A stretch of DNA of 64,000 nucleotides from a virus, in the IMG/VR virus record IMGVR_UViG_3300031450_000090. The stretch is one strand, 5' to 3'. Shown here piece after piece: positions 589 to 8,572 of this stretch. Below the pieces are notes generated by a model. The model saw only the letters and a program-made list of their open reading frames with translations. It was not told where the DNA came from and searched no databases. Position 1 is the stretch's first letter, and the number at the start of each line of letters is the position of its first letter. Position numbers and translations under genes: made by a program.

Positions 589-788
589 GCAGCCCTCCCG
601 CCACCCGAGCCGCTTCGCAGCCGCGCCGCCAGACTGGCGATGATGCGGTCGAGTCGCGGCTCGAGGTGCGGCCCCAATAGCCTGCCGTCGGGGTGGCGAC
701 CGGTCCGACGAACGGCGACGAGGTCGCTCCAAAGACGGGCCACGGCCGCCTGCGGTCCCGCGCCCCCGTCGGTGCGGCTCATCTTCAC
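585..788 (-). CDS. Small hypothetical protein
   Basis: Coupled by GTGA and ATGA overlaps on both sides. Confidence 0.55.
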   Translation of the reverse strand: MKMSRTDGGAGPQAAVARLWSDLVAVRRTGRHPDGRLLGPHLEPRLDRIIASLAARLRSGSGGGRAA

Positions 789-2653
789 GGCGCCGCCGCG
801 GCGCCGGGCGCCACCGTCCTACTGGCCCGACCGCGTGACGAGGCGTTCGCTGCGCCCTGTTCGGCGACACGCGGCGGCACGTAATGGCAGGAGCGCAGCA
901 TGGGTGGAAGCCAGCCGACCTGTTCGGCGAGGGTTGCGGCCGCCAGTGCGATCTGGCCTTTCCTGCCCGTCGGCTTCGGGCCGCCCATCTCTTCGACCGC
1001 GGCGATCGCGATCGCGGCCGGCGCCCGGTCGAAGTAGAGCGCGCCATCGAAGGTCTGCCGCGCAGCTTTCAGGTAGCCGTCCGGATCGAGTGCGTCGATC
1101 AGCTGCTGGCGCCCGCGGACCGCGACGCCGGGATTGCTGTAAGCCGCCTCGGTCATATCGAGGCTCGCCGCGACGCGCGAGGCGATCTCGGCCTTGAGAT
1201 GGACCATGCTGGAGCGCTGCGCCGACGCGAAAGCGTCCGCGAAGCTGCCGGTCCGCGACGCAACCGGATGCACCATCGCCTTGCCGAGGCCGTGCCAGCC
1301 GTGATCGCCGATCCGCGCCGGCGAGCCGAAGCATTGGAAGGCCGCCACCAGTACGCGCAGTGCCGTGTCGGGCTCGTCCGCGATGGCGTTGGCGGCCGCA
1401 GCCGTCAGCTGCTCGGACAGGAGCTGGGCCAGGACACCGGAGATCTCGGGACTGGATGCTTCCCCCTCCTCCTGCTCGGCGTCATGACCGTTCGCGGCGG
1501 GTGTACCCTGAAGGGTGGGGTCCGGGGCCGGGCCGGCCGCCTCCCCGCCCGGCCGCACGATGCCGTGCTCGATCGAGAGCTCGCCGTCATAGCCGACGCG
1601 CAGCACGCAGCCGGAGAGCGCCTTGTCGTCGGCCGAGAAGGAGCGGAGCCAGGCGGCCGCCCCCACCTTCCCGGCCTCCGCGCGCGCTGCCTCGCGCTGC
1701 TTAAACTCGGCGGCAGTGCCTCCCGGGCCGGTCGCCTCGACGATCGGCTGGAGCTGCTCGATCCGGAACAGCTCCTCTTCCGTGAAGCGGGTGGTGACGG
1801 CGGCTTTAGGCCATTTGTAGCGATCGTTCGGCAGGTCGGAGGCCAGCGCGGCCCAGCCCCAGCCTTGCGCGACGAGGTCGCGGCAAGCGGCGTCGATCTT
1901 CTCGCGCTCGAGCCGCTTCAGGATCTCGCCGTCGAGGACGTGTGCCTCCTCGGCGAACAGGTCGTCGTGCAGCCGACCTCCGGCCGCCAGATAGGCGTCA
2001 CGGCCGACGAATCTGAGGTCGCCGCCCCCGCCTATGTCGCTGCGCGTGAGAGCCCGGATGATGGCGTGGCGCTGCAGCATCTGGCCCTTGGCCAGGGAGG
2101 CATAGACCTGATCCTGCAGTTCGTGGTCCTGCACGATGGTGAAGGCCTGGGCGACCTCCGTCCGGATGCGGTTTTCCCGCCAGGCCTCGCGCAGGTGCGG
2201 CGACAGCGAGCCGAGCGCCAAACGCCGGTAGACGACGAGCTCCGATGTGCCGAAGCTCGAGGCGATATCGGCCGGGCTCTTGCCGGCATTGCGCAGCTGC
2301 GCAAAGGCCTCGTACTGGTCGACCTCGTGCATCGGCAGTTGCATGATGTTGGCCGTGAGCGACAGCTCGAGCGGGTCCACGTCCTCCGCCATCTCCTCGA
2401 CCTTGACGGGCCAGTCCTTTGGCAACCTGCCGTCCTTGACGAGCAACCGCATGGCCTTCAGTCGCCGGTTACCCTCGCCCACGTAGGCCTTGCCGCCGTG
2501 GGTCTTGATCACCAGGGCGTGGATCAGGCCCTTGTCCAGGATGGTGGCGCCAAGCTCGGCGAGACCATCCTCGCGGCCCGCCTTGCGGGCGTTGATGCTG
2601 CCGCCCGGGTAGTCGTCGCCGAACTTCAGCTTGTTGAGCGCGATCGTGGTCAT
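785..2653 (-). CDS. ParB/RepB/Spo0J-family protein, long form (~622 aa)
   Basis: N-terminal ParB domain: INARK...LAELGATILDKGLIHALVI...VGEGNRRLKAM (GxRR motif), then an HTH-like segment EQYEAFAQL..GKSPADIASSFG. ATG at 2653. Confidence 0.85.
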   Translation of the reverse strand: MTTIALNKLKFGDDYPGGSINARKAGREDGLAELGATILDKGLIHALVIKTHGGKAYVGEGNRRLKAMRLLVKDGRLPKDWPVKVEEMAEDVDPLELSLTANIMQLPMHEVDQYEAFAQLRNAGKSPADIASSFGTSELVVYRRLALGSLSPHLREAWRENRIRTEVAQAFTIVQDHELQDQVYASLAKGQMLQRHAIIRALTRSDIGGGGDLRFVGRDAYLAAGGRLHDDLFAEEAHVLDGEILKRLEREKIDAACRDLVAQGWGWAALASDLPNDRYKWPKAAVTTRFTEEELFRIEQLQPIVEATGPGGTAAEFKQREAARAEAGKVGAAAWLRSFSADDKALSGCVLRVGYDGELSIEHGIVRPGGEAAGPAPDPTLQGTPAANGHDAEQEEGEASSPEISGVLAQLLSEQLTAAAANAIADEPDTALRVLVAAFQCFGSPARIGDHGWHGLGKAMVHPVASRTGSFADAFASAQRSSMVHLKAEIASRVAASLDMTEAAYSNPGVAVRGRQQLIDALDPDGYLKAARQTFDGALYFDRAPAAIAIAAVEEMGGPKPTGRKGQIALAAATLAEQVGWLPPMLRSCHYVPPRVAEQGAANASSRGRASRTVAPGAAAAP

Positions 2654-2693
2654 GATGGAGCCTTCCATTGGTCGAGGGGAGATGCAGAGCCGG

Positions 2694-2912
2694 TCACGCG
2701 GCCTGCCTCGGATTCCAGACACCCGCCGAGGCCGCCCTGACGATCGGCGCCCCGGTGGCGACCCAGGCCCAGCCGACGTCCGTGATCACGGCGTCCCCTG
2801 CGGCGCGCGCAGGCGGGCAGAGGACGCAGTAGAGGGCAATCCACCCCGCCACCATCACGCCCAGCGCGACGGCGGCACAGGGCTCGGGGGAGACGGACAG
2901 GGCTGACATCAT
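2694..2912 (-). CDS. Small hydrophobic/membrane protein
   Basis: ATG at 2912 in an ATGA overlap; hydrophobic stretch AAVALGVMVAGWIALYCVL. Confidence 0.5.
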   Translation of the reverse strand: MMSALSVSPEPCAAVALGVMVAGWIALYCVLCPPARAAGDAVITDVGWAWVATGAPIVRAASAGVWNPRQAA

Positions 2913-4815: not shown

Positions 4816-4865
4816 AGGCTCATCCTGGGCGGAGACCGGAAAGGGTTGTGATCCCGGACGAGCAG

Positions 4866-4939
4866 AAAGTACCCGGTAATTCTACCTAGTCAAGCTGTTT
4901 AGGTAATAAAACCGAGATCCTGGACGGTAAGTTTTCCAC
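4866..4939 (-). promoter_or_regulatory. PL-like promoter with OL-like operators
   Basis: Minus strand TTGACT (4893-4888), N16, TACTTT (4871-4866). Operators CCGGTA-attc-TACCTA (4873-4888), TAGGTA-ataa-AACCGA (4900-4915) and weak ACGGTA-agtt-TTCCAC (4924-4939) match the cI/cro intergenic operators. Confidence 0.75.
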
Positions 4940-5006
4940 AGCCGTCCACAACCTCAGCGAGTCGACAACCTCTTGACTCAAATTTGACGAATGATGCATG
5001 TGACAG

Positions 5007-5021
5007 GAACAAAACAGGAAC
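5007..5021 (+). promoter_or_regulatory. Alphaproteobacterial LexA (SOS) box
   Basis: GAAC-aaaacag-GAAC, the reverse complement of GTTC-N7-GTTC; TTGACT/TTGACG hexamers upstream at 4973 and 4984. Confidence 0.65.
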
Positions 5022-5041
5022 GACCCAGCCCGGAACTCCTC

Positions 5042-5353
5042 ATGTTGCGTTTAGCGTTTCCGGCCGGTGCCGATGACGACGTGGTGCTAAAGGTCCACGT
5101 GCGCTGCCGCTCCTGCCACCTCGAGGCCTATCCGCTGGCGCCCGTGAACCGGCCACCGGCCAGCGTAAGCGCCCTGGCGATCTTCAAGAAGCAGCGGCTG
5201 TTCGAGCGCATGACCTTCACCTGCGTGGGGTGCGATCATCCAAGCGGCGATCTAGTGGGCGTCGACTACGCGACGGCCAACGACGTGGTGGACCGCTCCA
5301 GCCCGTACCCGACTCTCGGCGCACCTCGGCTCATGCGCTTGGCCGCAGGGTAG
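5042..5353 (+). CDS. Zinc-ribbon-like protein (CxxC...CxxC), probably SOS-regulated
   Basis: CRSC and CVGC motifs. ATG at 5042 preferred because the track start at 4991 lies upstream of the SOS box. Confidence 0.6.
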   Translation: MLRLAFPAGADDDVVLKVHVRCRSCHLEAYPLAPVNRPPASVSALAIFKKQRLFERMTFTCVGCDHPSGDLVGVDYATANDVVDRSSPYPTLGAPRLMRLAAG

Positions 5354-5407
5354 GAGCCGAGCGACGCGGAATCATTTCGGCCAAGCGGCTGCTCCAACAA
5401 CCCGTCC

Positions 5408-5899
5408 TTACGTGCGTTCGCGGTTTCGGTTCGTCACGTACTGGTCGAAGAGTGGCCTGAGCGGGATGGTATTGCGGTGCGCCGTGTGGATGGCCGCAAT
5501 GCAAGCGGGATTCGCACGACTCGCCTTGGCGACCTGCTCATGACTGGCCTTTCGGCCGGCTTCCGAAAATTGACCTCCGGTCAAGGCGTCGAGCAGAATG
5601 GCTATCGCTTCGTCCGCTCGTACCCCGTCCTCACTGCGCACCCATGGACGCCAGGTTCCATAAGCCCCATCAACGAGGGCCTGCGCCGCGGTCAGTTTCG
5701 CTTCGACGACCCGTGGTTTGTCTAAATCGTCGTAATCCTGGCTCCAATACTCGACCGCCTGGCCGGAGGCATCTCCGATGCATTTGCATAGCTCGTCGGT
5801 CCGCGCAGTGAACTCGTCACGGCGCAGTTTCCAGACGTTGAACAAGGTCGAGAGGAGGAAGCCAAATACGGTGCCGATCAGGCCAAAGAGCCAACTCAT
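5408..5899 (-). CDS. Single-TM membrane protein, third gene of the GHKL-STAS module
   Basis: N-terminal hydrophobic helix WLFGLIGTVFGFLLSTLFNVW, then a helical domain; 12-bp gap from the STAS gene. Confidence 0.75.
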   Translation of the reverse strand: MSWLFGLIGTVFGFLLSTLFNVWKLRRDEFTARTDELCKCIGDASGQAVEYWSQDYDDLDKPRVVEAKLTAAQALVDGAYGTWRPWVRSEDGVRADEAIAILLDALTGGQFSEAGRKASHEQVAKASRANPACIAAIHTAHRNTIPLRPLFDQYVTNRNRERT

Positions 5900-5911
5900 T
5901 GGTCCGCAACC

Positions 5912-6256
5912 TCACGTGCGTCGACGATGCTCCTCGTCAATGTATTTGCTGGCCCTGACTCGGTGCGGCAGGAAACGTGGAGTCCGTGCTTGGATGTCGA
6001 GGTGAGCCACGACGTCTTTATAGGCGAAACCGTGGCGTATTAGACCGGCGAAGGCCTCGTCCAGGAAGGAAGATCCGTAGCCCGCGACATCGTCGATCGT
6101 TACGGTGACCCTGCCACCGTTGGCCAAGGCAGCTCGGAGCGCCGGCGCGAGCAGCTCCTCTCGGAACTGTTCTCCGCTGTGAGGTCCGTCGCGACGATAC
6201 CGCGGTCCCGGATACAGAGAGAAGTCGCGTGCCACACTGATGGTACGGTCCGGCAT
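5912..6256 (-). CDS. STAS-like domain protein (DUF4325 type)
   Basis: ISVARDFSLYPGPRYRRDGPHSGEQFREELL...VTIDDVAGYGSSFLDEAFAGL; the SSF serine aligns with the STAS phosphoacceptor. ATG at 6256. Confidence 0.85.
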   Translation of the reverse strand: MPDRTISVARDFSLYPGPRYRRDGPHSGEQFREELLAPALRAALANGGRVTVTIDDVAGYGSSFLDEAFAGLIRHGFAYKDVVAHLDIQARTPRFLPHRVRASKYIDEEHRRRT

Positions 6257-6267
6257 GTCTGCCACTC

Positions 6268-7446
6268 TCAGCGAAGTCGAAGCTGCCATTCCACCAGCGT
6301 GCCGCCGATGGACTGCGCATGGCTGCGGGTTTGCGATCTTTGCCCCGTAGTCCACACGAATTCTCCGTTCCTGCTTAAAACCCGCAAGCGACCCCAACTG
6401 GCGCGCTGGGCGACCTCAAGCAGCGTGTTGAGCCCCTTGCCTCGGTGCGCCAGGCCTGTCGATGATCTGGCGATCACCATCGCGAGCCTGATCGCGACAC
6501 CGTCATATGTCGGGCTGTCCAAGTCCTGCTTCAACCCGGCGCGCACAGCGAGCCTGCCCATCAAGCGCCTTACCCGGCCGAAATGTTCCCATCGAGGGAG
6601 GCTCGCCGGAATGGAGATTCCCTGATCATAGGCCACAACCGTCACCAAACCCTTTTCGCTGTCGACCGACCCGGTGATCCACCAGCATTTAAGAGGGGCG
6701 TGATCCCAAGCTTGATCGTTCGGGTAGGCGTGCTCGTGAGAATTGAGGATGGCTTCAAAAATGCCGCCATAGGGCTGGATGTCGAGAAGTTGCTCTTGCT
6801 CGTCTGAAGACAGCAGCTCGAGCAAGGATTGTTGTAGCTTCCCAACCGAGGGGCCATCCGCGAGCTCTCCAGACAGAAATTGCAGCGTCTTTGTCGCCCC
6901 TCGTTGGACGACGGATCCCTTCCGCTCCTTCATTTGCAGGAGCTCCTTGAAGCCGACCTGGAGCAACATGTCGACGACCTCCGGCTTCCAGCGCTGCTCG
7001 TCCACGGTCCACAGCCGTCGACCGGTGATGAACTTCTTTCGATGATAGAGTGCAGCCATGATCAGGGCCGCCGTGGTGGTGATCCGACGCATGTCGCCGA
7101 AATCGATGTAGGACCTGAGCCTCGCGGGACGCTGCGTGCTGTCCTTTGCAGGTGACGCGTTCGGGCTGAGTTGCCGGAGCATCGCATCATCGAGCAGGTG
7201 GGACCGTAACCTGGCCAGGAATGCGAGCGTCTCGTCGAAGTTGTCGTCGAGGCAGAAGGTGGCCGGCATCGCAATCTTTCCCGATGCCCAGACGCGCCGC
7301 GCCATTCGCCCGTCGTTGAGCACCACTCTGTACCGGATCCCCCGACGCTTCGCCCTCCTCCAGCACTTCCACTTCAGGCGGCGACGTTGGTGACGCAGCG
7401 CGTGGACGCGAAGGGCTCTTTTTCGGCCGACGCGGAGCAGTTTCAA
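6268..7446 (-). CDS. GHKL/HATPase_c ATP-binding protein (anti-sigma-kinase-like) with an N-terminal STAS-like region
   Basis: N-box EAILNSHEHA, G1 YDQGISIP, G2 HRGKGL, terminal GGTLVEW; no HisKA histidine box. TTG start 24 bp after the cI stop (later ATG starts possible). Confidence 0.8.
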   Translation of the reverse strand: MKLLRVGRKRALRVHALRHQRRRLKWKCWRRAKRRGIRYRVVLNDGRMARRVWASGKIAMPATFCLDDNFDETLAFLARLRSHLLDDAMLRQLSPNASPAKDSTQRPARLRSYIDFGDMRRITTTAALIMAALYHRKKFITGRRLWTVDEQRWKPEVVDMLLQVGFKELLQMKERKGSVVQRGATKTLQFLSGELADGPSVGKLQQSLLELLSSDEQEQLLDIQPYGGIFEAILNSHEHAYPNDQAWDHAPLKCWWITGSVDSEKGLVTVVAYDQGISIPASLPRWEHFGRVRRLMGRLAVRAGLKQDLDSPTYDGVAIRLAMVIARSSTGLAHRGKGLNTLLEVAQRASWGRLRVLSRNGEFVWTTGQRSQTRSHAQSIGGTLVEWQLRLR

Positions 7447-7470
7447 AGCTCGTCTACAGCCTCTTTCCGC

Positions 7471-8232
7471 TCACCGCCGCCGCACCTTGGTCATCACGTC
7501 GATCACCACGCCGAGGATCTCGACCTGGGTGGCTTCATCCGGTGCGAAGTCCTTGGGCACCACGATCGGCTGGTGACGCAGGTTGGTCGAACGGGGACAG
7601 AAGCGGGTCTCGGCCTCGTCCAGTTGCAGCTCCTTGATCGAACGCTCGCGCAGGGCGCCGTCGTCGCGCGTGCGCTCGATCACGACGATGTCGCCGGTCT
7701 GCAGCGCCAACCGATTGCGGAAATGCTCGAGTTTCACTGCCACCACGCGGGAGCCCGGCCTGATCGGAGGATCGGCGGCGTTCATCGAGTCGCCGGCGAC
7801 GTCGAAGGTGAAATAGGCGGCGAGCGGAAAGCGCTCGTCCCGCGGCACGAATTCGGGGTCACGGCTCGGATCGTCGAACTCTCCCACTTCGCGGAACGTC
7901 CCGGCCTCGACAATGCCGCCGTAGGTTGCCCGGACGAACTGATAACTGCCTGGTCGGGAGCCTTCGTCCCTCGTTCCGCTGAGCGCGCCGCTGCTTGCAT
8001 CAGACTCTTCCGGCCCGGCACCAGCTAGAAGCCAAGTCGCTGATGTGCGTAGAACGGGAGCCAGGGCGTTCAAAGTTGCAGTGCTAATGCCCTGGCGGCG
8101 CCCTTCCTTCGCGGCGCGCTGCAGATTTCGAATTGCGTCCGACTTTCCAGCAGCTTTGGACGCGGCCGACGCCGAAAGGCCCGTGGCGGTCAGCCGCCTT
8201 TCGATGCGCTCGAGGATGTCCGGAAGGTTCAT
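7471..8232 (-). CDS. cI: CI-like repressor: N-terminal HTH plus S24 autopeptidase
   Basis: HTH (GLSASAASKAAGKSDAIRNL...TLNALAPVLRTSATWLL); S24 catalytic Ser in VAGDSMN and Lys in SIKEL; divergent from a cro-like gene. Confidence 0.9.
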   Translation of the reverse strand: MNLPDILERIERRLTATGLSASAASKAAGKSDAIRNLQRAAKEGRRQGISTATLNALAPVLRTSATWLLAGAGPEESDASSGALSGTRDEGSRPGSYQFVRATYGGIVEAGTFREVGEFDDPSRDPEFVPRDERFPLAAYFTFDVAGDSMNAADPPIRPGSRVVAVKLEHFRNRLALQTGDIVVIERTRDDGALRERSIKELQLDEAETRFCPRSTNLRHQPIVVPKDFAPDEATQVEILGVVIDVMTKVRRR

Positions 8233-8235
8233 GCC

Positions 8236-8313
8236 GCAGTAATATGACCGCACAACCGCGTCACCGGCATCGGTAATAACCCCGTTGACTCTCTCGGTAT
8301 CTTTACCGATTAT
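8236..8313 (+). promoter_or_regulatory. OR-like operators and PR-like promoter
   Basis: TTGACT (8285-8290), N17, GATTAT (8308-8313). Operators TCGGTA-tctt-TACCGA (8294-8309, perfect inverted repeat), TCGGTA-ataa-CCCCGT (8270-8285) and GCAGTA-atat-GACCGC (8236-8251). Confidence 0.8.
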
Positions 8314-8320
8314 GCGCGTC

Positions 8321-8572
8321 ATGAGCGCTATCGATCACCTCCTGAGGCTTTCCGACAGCTACCGCGGGGCCACGGGCATTGGTCAGTCCGCGCTGAGTTG
8401 GCGAATGTTCGGCGACACAAAGAAGTTGAGGGCGCTGCGGGAAGGGGCGGACATCCAGGTCAAGCGTCTCGAGAAAACCCTCCAATGGTTTTCCGACAAC
8501 TGGCCAGATGGTGCCGAATGGCCCGCTGACGTTCCCCGGCCGCCCCCCGCCACCTCGGAAGCTGCGGCATGA
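8321..8572 (+). CDS. cro: Cro-like small HTH regulator
   Basis: MSAIDHLLRLSDSY...ALSWRMFGDTKKLRALREGADIQVKRLEKTLQWFSDNWP; divergent from cI. Confidence 0.8.
   Translation: MSAIDHLLRLSDSYRGATGIGQSALSWRMFGDTKKLRALREGADIQVKRLEKTLQWFSDNWPDGAEWPADVPRPPPATSEAAA

Follow-up and report, generated by a model that had tools for sequence, protein, structure and literature searches.

What do three genes lying directly behind a phage repressor do for the lysogen? The question is raised by the IMG/VR virus record IMGVR_UViG_3300031450_000090, of which a stretch of 64,000 nucleotides (nt), here called the window, was analysed. The window comprises most of the 64.6-kb record, and the sequencing runs listed as containing the same stretch are all of rock-metagenome DNA, with no RNA run among them. 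The three genes, A, B and C (5408–7446, minus strand), encode a predicted kinase, a small STAS-like protein and a membrane protein. A preliminary description had interpreted them as a phosphorylation-gated switch controlling a membrane effector, in the position occupied by rexAB in phage λ. By analogy with related kinase and STAS systems, we think it probable that the triad is a kinase-gated module resembling a toxin–antitoxin pair (K-S-TM, the last term standing for the transmembrane (TM) protein), expressed in the lysogen and carried as prophage cargo for defence or exclusion.

Three genes follow the cI-like repressor

Gene A (K; 6268–7446) starts with TTG and encodes 392 amino acids (aa); it was assigned from its match to phrog_3364, alignments and a structural model. 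Gene B (S; 5912–6256), assigned from a Pfam match and an alignment, encodes a 114 aa protein of the DUF4325/STAS-like type. Gene C (5408–5899) encodes 163 aa comprising a TM helix and a four-helix bundle, as judged from hydropathy, reading of the open reading frame (ORF), alignments and a model. As described earlier, the three genes are co-oriented, closely spaced and placed immediately after the cI stop codon. All of them, and the repressor gene (7471–8232), are on the minus strand, and the successive gaps from repressor to A, A to B and B to C are 24, 11 and 12 nt. The repressor is cI-like, with a helix-turn-helix (HTH) domain and an S24 self-cleaving peptidase domain (Pfam Peptidase_S24, 5e-6; phrog_4 'transcriptional repressor', 3e-19), and has a further possible start upstream, at 8322. 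A sequence scan of the junction between the repressor and A found no terminator-like site. As the triad is directly downstream of the repressor, it is probably transcribed with cI and made in the lysogen from the repressor transcript.

The block was also said to be richer in AT than its surroundings, and this is borne out by a GC content of 0.57–0.63 across 5400–7400, compared with approximately 0.69–0.77 in most flanking windows.

Protein A is predicted to be a SpoIIAB-like kinase

Protein A consists of a basic N-terminal helix, a STAS-like domain (residues ~37–173) and a SpoIIAB-like GHKL kinase domain (~184–392). The helix is strongly basic, with 20 lysine or arginine residues within the first 47. 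The database record begins the protein at Met60, giving 333 aa. However, residues 1–59 can be aligned with the beginnings of numerous homologous proteins (MKLL..., MRFL... or MKKL..., with LKWKCWRR or LRWKEWRR), and because this basic N-terminus is shared, the TTG at 7446 is the likely start and a length of 392 aa is more likely than one of 333. The repressor TGA (7471–7473) is in frame with A, with eight sense codons between it and the TTG of A (7444–7473, minus strand). The shared frame is probably a coincidence; read-through would yield a repressor–kinase fusion.

Among 81 homologues of A the residues N235, D274, G276, G336, G338, G382 and T383 of the Bergerat motifs are invariant. The N-box contains E231 and N235 (FEAILNSHEHA), the former being nearly invariant, and the nucleotide boxes G1 (D274-Q-G276) and G2 (G336-K-G338-L339) are invariant or nearly so. 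Another invariant residue of A is W153. Judged from the sequence, the ATP-binding motifs of A are intact.

Searches with A gave no match in Pfam, NCBIfam or PADLOC (2023 library), and a match to phrog_3364 at 1e-30. When a profile of the A family, made from 19 homologues, was compared with PDB sequences, RsbW (E 0.006) and SpoIIAB were the only matches. The same profile matched 2707 clusters (50% identity) at E ≤0.001, a count that takes in relatives with other partners, and 737 clusters at ≤1e-30.

The AlphaFold model of A has a predicted local distance difference test score (pLDDT) of 91.9 and a predicted template modelling score (pTM) of 0.89. SpoIIAB was the closest structure found with this model by Foldseek (E 7e-4, TMt 0.6). 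When residues 184–392 were aligned by VIA-align, SpoIIAB scored Z 12.1 (133 residues, root-mean-square deviation 3.4), RsbW Z 9.7, UsfX Z 9.2 and SiaB Z 7.8; the P4 domain of CheA (Z 9.6) and the N-domain of Hsp90 (Z 8.3) also matched. Residues 37–173 aligned with the STAS domain of the SulP transporter SULTR4;1 (Z 7.2). No DHp domain is present in the model. On sequence and model together, A is a Bergerat-fold (GHKL) protein of the SpoIIAB/RsbW-like kinase type, with predicted kinase activity, and its earlier reading as a GHKL ATPase lacking HisKA, with an N-terminal STAS-like region, was upheld.

Protein B is a STAS protein with an invariant serine

Protein B matches the Pfam family DUF4325 (PF14213) with 34.7 bits against a cut-off of 23, and an E-value of 1.4e-8. 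This is the sole domain match in its 114 aa; no HTH, DNA-binding or other output domain was found. Residues R19, F31, L36, S63, F64, F69 and G71 are invariant in 37 diverse sequences. Ser63 lies in VAGYGSSFLDEAF, where it is the second serine of GSSF in VAGYGSSF, at the start of a helix, and the phospho-serines of SpoIIAA, CapS and VapS occupy the same helix-start place (PMC13373217). The protein ends in a short C-terminal helix. The Pfam match and the invariance of Ser63 in these homologues agree with the previous account of B as a stand-alone DUF4325/STAS protein with a phosphoacceptor-like serine.

A further match of B is to the C-terminal portion of a PHROG of 441 positions, and single chains in which HATPase_c is fused to DUF4325 occur naturally (6 of 6 tested). 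Together, these fusions and the PHROG match indicate that the kinase and the STAS protein are functionally linked. The fusions, in which a SpoIIAB-type HATPase_c domain is followed by a C-terminal DUF4325, were seen at loci L052, L062, L063, L066, L067 and L076, that at L062 also having an N-terminal HTH.

Two other candidate matches of B were discarded. A PADLOC match to 'E2' (5e-4) fell within a spurious upstream extension of a 161-aa ORF, and a match of the B profile to kinesin among PDB sequences was attributed to chance (E ~1); nothing else matched.

Protein C is a membrane protein predicted to bind B

Protein C has one N-terminal hydrophobic helix (residues ~2–22) followed by the basic sequence WKLRRDE and further helices, as expected of the single-TM helical protein originally described. 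Because the TM helix is followed by basic residues, the remainder of C is predicted to be cytoplasmic. The structural model (pLDDT 95.2) shows one long helix (2–53) and a four-helix bundle, and the conserved motifs are Y51-W52 and T107-G-G-x-F111.

C has no PIN domain and matched no Pfam, NCBIfam or PADLOC family. When the model was compared with the PDB by Foldseek, nothing matched at E ≤0.001 and only generic four-helix bundles were found; among AFDB clusters the matches were uncharacterised proteins and a single member of the LemA family. An Atlas feature search returned 95 clusters, all unnamed. As a word-based homologue search found just two close relatives, the C family was assembled from gene neighbourhoods instead. 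The PADLOC and structure searches that had been proposed for the three proteins therefore gave no PADLOC family for A or C, SpoIIAB as the structure nearest to A, and no significant PDB match for C.

The interaction of B with C was modelled using B and residues 24–163 of C, with one custom alignment per chain. The complex had an interaction prediction score from aligned errors (ipSAE) of 0.87 (0.89, 0.86 and 0.87 in individual runs), compared with 0.00 for the best of three controls. In a calibration, which is approximate because custom alignments were used, 58 of 80 solved complexes and 2 of 110 mismatched pairs attained the mark of 0.87. The partner pLDDT was 94, and the runs agreed on at least 96% of contacts. 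No solved complex containing a protein like C is known to us, so the score is unlikely to reflect a structure already known to the predictor.

The predicted interface comprises residues 17–24, 58–63, 66 and the C-terminal helix (92–104) of B, and residues 70–85 and 96–114 of C. In the model, S62 and S63 of B contact T107–G109 of C, which are part of the most conserved motif of that protein. The model supports binding of B to C via the conserved serine.

The triad is related to VapKSC and other kinase–STAS operons

A closely comparable arrangement has been described in VapKSC (Chambers, Rani, Min, Villa & Corbett, EMBO J 2026; PMC13373217), which consists of a STAS-GHKL kinase (VapK), a STAS antitoxin (VapS) and a PIN toxin (VapC). 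VapK is proposed to phosphorylate VapS, releasing VapC; Ser48 of VapS is buried in the toxin interface, and VapS has a short C-terminal region. The system protects against phage Bas42, and its response to single-stranded DNA (ssDNA) was inferred from a model and an F54A mutant (PMC13373217). In the related CapK–CapS system, the kinase CapK (HTH-STAS-GHKL) is switched on by DNA damage, with ssDNA as the activator, and its phosphorylation of a conserved serine in CapS (STAS with a winged HTH) de-represses immune operons (PMC13373217). One VapC group had been described as 'transcriptionally coupled to DUF4325 genes' in an older classification of PIN domains (PMC5499597).

To judge homology to VapKSC, PIN-linked operons from genomes were used in place of the published VapK and VapS. 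Four such operons appeared in a survey of DUF4325 genes (L049, L056, L057 and L061), each with a kinase of ~290–340 aa, a DUF4325 protein and a PIN protein. In hhalign comparisons the A family aligned with the kinase of the PIN-linked operon L049 with a probability of 96.5% (E 8e-10, 203 columns), and the B family with the STAS protein of a PIN-linked operon with a probability of 93.5% (E 2e-7). By these alignments A is remotely homologous to the kinase, and B to the STAS protein, of operons of the PIN-linked, VapKSC type. PADLOC (2023 library) was blank for genuine PIN-linked kinase, STAS and PIN genes as well, so its blank result for the triad is uninformative.

The third gene of operons containing a kinase and DUF4325 was surveyed, as had been suggested, and was found to encode a TM protein in loci of the A family and a PIN or PRiA4_ORF3 protein in others. 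Operons of the PRiA4_ORF3 type, with a STAS+HATPase_c kinase, DUF4325 and a third gene matching PF07929 (E 1e-52), were found at L050:689-2746 and L051:172-2761. At L068:878-3130 a kinase-like ORF (319 aa) is accompanied by a 95-aa DUF4325 ORF, and the flanking genes resemble, by eye, an S24 peptidase and a LuxR-type HTH protein; this locus may be a transcription-regulating form.

The triad shares with VapKSC the gene order of kinase, STAS protein and third gene, a kinase with STAS and SpoIIAB-like GHKL domains, a small STAS protein of ~115 aa with DUF4325, a conserved serine and a short C-terminal helix, and a mobile, sporadic distribution. The geometry of the B–C model parallels that of VapS and VapC, the burial of the phospho-serine in the toxin interface being solved there and predicted here. 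The two differ in that the third gene of the triad encodes a single-pass membrane protein with a four-helix bundle, belonging to no named family, rather than a PIN nuclease, in that the N-terminal helix of A is long and very basic, and in that the triad lies within a prophage immunity region.

CapK–CapS has the same class of STAS and GHKL kinase and an adjacent STAS substrate with a conserved serine. However, CapS has a winged HTH and represses transcription whereas B is a bare 114-aa STAS protein, and CapK has an N-terminal HTH where A has a basic helix; the output of the triad would be a protein partner, not a promoter. SpoIIAB–SpoIIAA and RsbW–RsbV provide the best structural match to the kinase domain and have a STAS-type substrate with a serine at a helix start. 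Unlike these pairs, A has an additional N-terminal STAS domain, and the triad has no sigma partner, a membrane protein as third partner and a mobile-element or prophage context.

By these homologies, the triad is a branch of a modular kinase and STAS switch with a different third component. A membrane-protein version of the switch is not mentioned in PMC13373217 or in the other literature searched.

The triad is a mobile accessory cassette

The order A-B-C is constant. Wherever sufficient DNA lies downstream of A, the next gene encodes a homologue of B (hidden Markov model E-values 1e-12 to 1e-65) and the one after it a protein with a hydrophobic helix. The third-gene proteins are 144–235 aa long as called, have the hydrophobic helix near the N-terminus and usually contain a YW or FW motif; the start of the third ORF at L010 looks truncated. 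The complete triad was present at 18 of 21 IMG/VR loci, the other three ending too soon after A or B, at all nine genome_contigs loci, and in nine of ten further genomes, one contig ending inside A. The ten were found among 400 sampled genomes, drawn from species of the phylum of the Rhizobium reference (Pseudomonadota), giving a frequency for the A family of ~2.5%. DUF4325 was found in 38 of 401 genomes, and triad genomes make up approximately a quarter of these. In Lichenibacterium, Mesorhizobium and one metagenome-assembled genome, A is followed by homologues of B (57–75% identity) and C (39–71%).

In Marinobacter phage AS1, which has cro and a divergent repressor, genes for an A-like, a DUF4325-like and a TM protein come directly after the repressor. 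The gene order of Francisella phage KIRK is Cro, cI, a 293-aa protein, DUF4325 and a TM protein (PMC7924643), and in a Helicobacter prophage the triad converges on the S24 repressor. A slot next to the repressor is therefore a recurrent location in different classes of proteobacteria. It is not the general one: the position directly behind the repressor is seen in the window phage, AS1 and KIRK, most homologous cassettes being elsewhere in prophages or islands.

The genes upstream of the triad at 26 other loci are heterogeneous and come mostly from mobile elements. They include an ATP-dependent DNA ligase (3 loci), DinI (2), a P22 antirepressor, an integrase, a terminase and a Dam methylase; some are housekeeping genes at island edges. 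The ligase genes are just upstream of the triad at three independent loci (L003:2673-3302, L009:814-1863 and L012:3702-4754). It had been considered that homologues might occur mainly in housekeeping sigma-factor contexts. In fact the 81 upstream neighbour ORFs of the 26 loci contained no member of a sigma factor family, and no sigma factor gene adjoins the triad in the window.

The triad was absent from all 30 IMG/VR phages in which a related repressor was found. Co-oriented genes behind these 30 repressors were few and had no informative family, so that a defence hotspot behind this repressor family was not demonstrable. The heterogeneous neighbours, the absence of the triad from phages with related repressors, its sporadic occurrence in the sampled genomes and its lowered GC content mark it as mobile accessory cargo.

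The surrounding immunity region

A pattern search found 12-mers resembling GGT-N5-TACC, with AT-rich cores, in two clusters of three each. The right, OR-like set (8238–8307, with sites at 8238, 8272 and 8296) is placed between the repressor and a divergent cro-like gene, and the left, OL-like set (4875–4937, with sites at 4875, 4902 and 4926) is within an AT-rich intergenic region (4816–4990). The placing of the triad between OR- and OL-like operators thus stands, with the correction that a convergent ORF (4991–5353) lies between C and the left set. Behind the repressor and between the operator sets, the triad occupies a slot like that of λ rexAB, as the preliminary description had proposed.

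The likeness to rexA–rexB extends to presumed expression in the lysogen, a membrane component and a presumed role in exclusion. The triad differs in having three genes rather than two and a logic based on a kinase and a STAS protein. No kinship in sequence or fold was found, and no Rex-type match for A, B or C emerged from scans of PADLOC (E ≤0.1), Pfam and PHROG, in which no direct comparison with the λ proteins was made.

The cro-like early gene (8285–8572, plus strand; probable ATG at 8312 or 8321) was recognised by its position and a match to phrog_7669 (6e-26). A promoter scan found a PR-like promoter, TTGACT-17-GATTAT (8285–8313, plus strand), between the repressor and this gene. The convergent ORF (4991–5353, plus strand), taken from the ORF list, encodes a Cys-rich protein of 120 aa with two CxxC motifs; it bounds the triad but is outside it, and no family match was found in Pfam, PADLOC, PHROG or NCBIfam. 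Ahead of it are tandem GTC(C/G)ACAACCTC(A/T) repeats (4944–4973). An imperfect 24-nt inverted repeat (5316–5339 and 5347–5370) covers its stop codon and the spacer before C, and could be a bidirectional terminator. To the left of the immunity region is a gene (785–2722, minus strand) whose 645-aa product has a ParB-like domain at its N-terminus (phrog_7783, 6e-74, and ParB-like PHROGs).

A proposed mechanism and its alternatives

In the mechanism that we propose, B would bind the cytoplasmic four-helix bundle of membrane-anchored C in the resting state and keep C inactive, with Ser63 packed on the TGGxF motif. A would then be activated, its STAS domain and basic N-terminal helix probably sensing ssDNA or some other nucleic acid that signals infection or damage to DNA. 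ssDNA is suggested as the trigger because of the precedent of CapK and VapK and because A has a STAS domain and a very basic helix. Phosphorylation of B at Ser63 by A would break the B–C interface, and the freed C would act at the inner membrane, either through pores or depolarisation, leading to abortive infection, or by blocking entry, leading to exclusion. The phosphorylation-gated logic of the earlier reading gains support from its agreement with the mechanism of VapKSC (PMC13373217), from the remote homology of A and B and from the B–C model. Phosphorylation, the trigger, the toxicity of C, the role in defence and co-transcription with cI are points that we only infer.

Several observations weigh against this reading. 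No known toxic domain is present in C, whose fold of a TM helix and a four-helix bundle is a generic one, and a role as anchor or sensor is equally conceivable. The serine of B is one residue nearer to the following phenylalanine than in the S proteins of PIN-linked operons, and the equivalence of the phosphosites is based on alignment. The evidence for co-transcription with cI consists of the short gaps and the lack of a terminator-like site. Finally, a trigger by DNA damage would also fire the module upon induction of its own prophage, which fits a pure superinfection defence less simply.

If C were a membrane anchor or sensor, for example of envelope stress or DNA injection, the kinase and STAS protein would relay its signal to an output encoded elsewhere, and no killing would be involved. 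The generic fold of C, which resembles sensor or LemA-type proteins and contains no recognisable enzymatic or pore motif, would suit such a role. We nevertheless regard it as rather unlikely, as A, B and C form a constant, compact mobile cassette with no further conserved partner seen, B has no DNA-binding or other output domain, and the putative phospho-serine of B lies within the predicted B–C interface, as it does with the VapKSC toxin. The position of the triad directly behind the repressor in the window phage, AS1 and KIRK raises another alternative, that a kinase switch sensing DNA damage tunes induction, lysis timing or repressor activity in the life cycle of the phage itself. Homologous kinases respond to ssDNA or DNA damage (PMC13373217), DinI and antirepressor genes adjoin some homologous cassettes, and a membrane protein might work in the manner of a holin or antiholin. 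Most cassettes, however, are not adjacent to a repressor; their other settings include the vicinity of genes for a ligase, terminase or integrase and the margins of chromosomal islands, and the 30 phages with related repressors that lack the triad indicate that it is dispensable cargo; a part in the phage's own cycle therefore seems improbable.

A classical partner switch of the SpoIIAB–SpoIIAA type, acting on a sigma factor in housekeeping or stress transcription, would account for the fact that the solved structures nearest to A are anti-sigma factor kinases and that B is STAS-like. It is essentially excluded by context: the surveyed neighbours of the triad, in the window and at the 26 loci, include no sigma factor gene, and the sporadic distribution is tied to mobile elements. 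The extra STAS domain of A is moreover a feature of CapK and VapK and not of SpoIIAB.

Significance

The kinase-gated module with a membrane effector, which we favour for the window phage, may have a wider counterpart. We suggest, more tentatively and with somewhat less than even confidence, that K-S-TM is a widespread anti-phage or exclusion system, in which a STAS-GHKL kinase that senses nucleic acid would phosphorylate a STAS antitoxin at its one invariant serine and so set free a new family of single-pass effectors, built of a TM helix and a four-helix bundle and marked by TGGxF, that collapse the membrane. It would occur repeatedly in the lysogen-expressed slot behind the repressors of alpha-, gamma- and epsilon-proteobacterial temperate phages, as a functional analogue of rexAB. 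The kinase and STAS switch was shown to govern immune operons (CapKS) and a PIN toxin (VapKSC) only in 2026, and the triad would extend it to a family of membrane effectors without a named domain. It would also add a case of prophages protecting their hosts, and an analogue to the long-unclear paradigm of RexAB.

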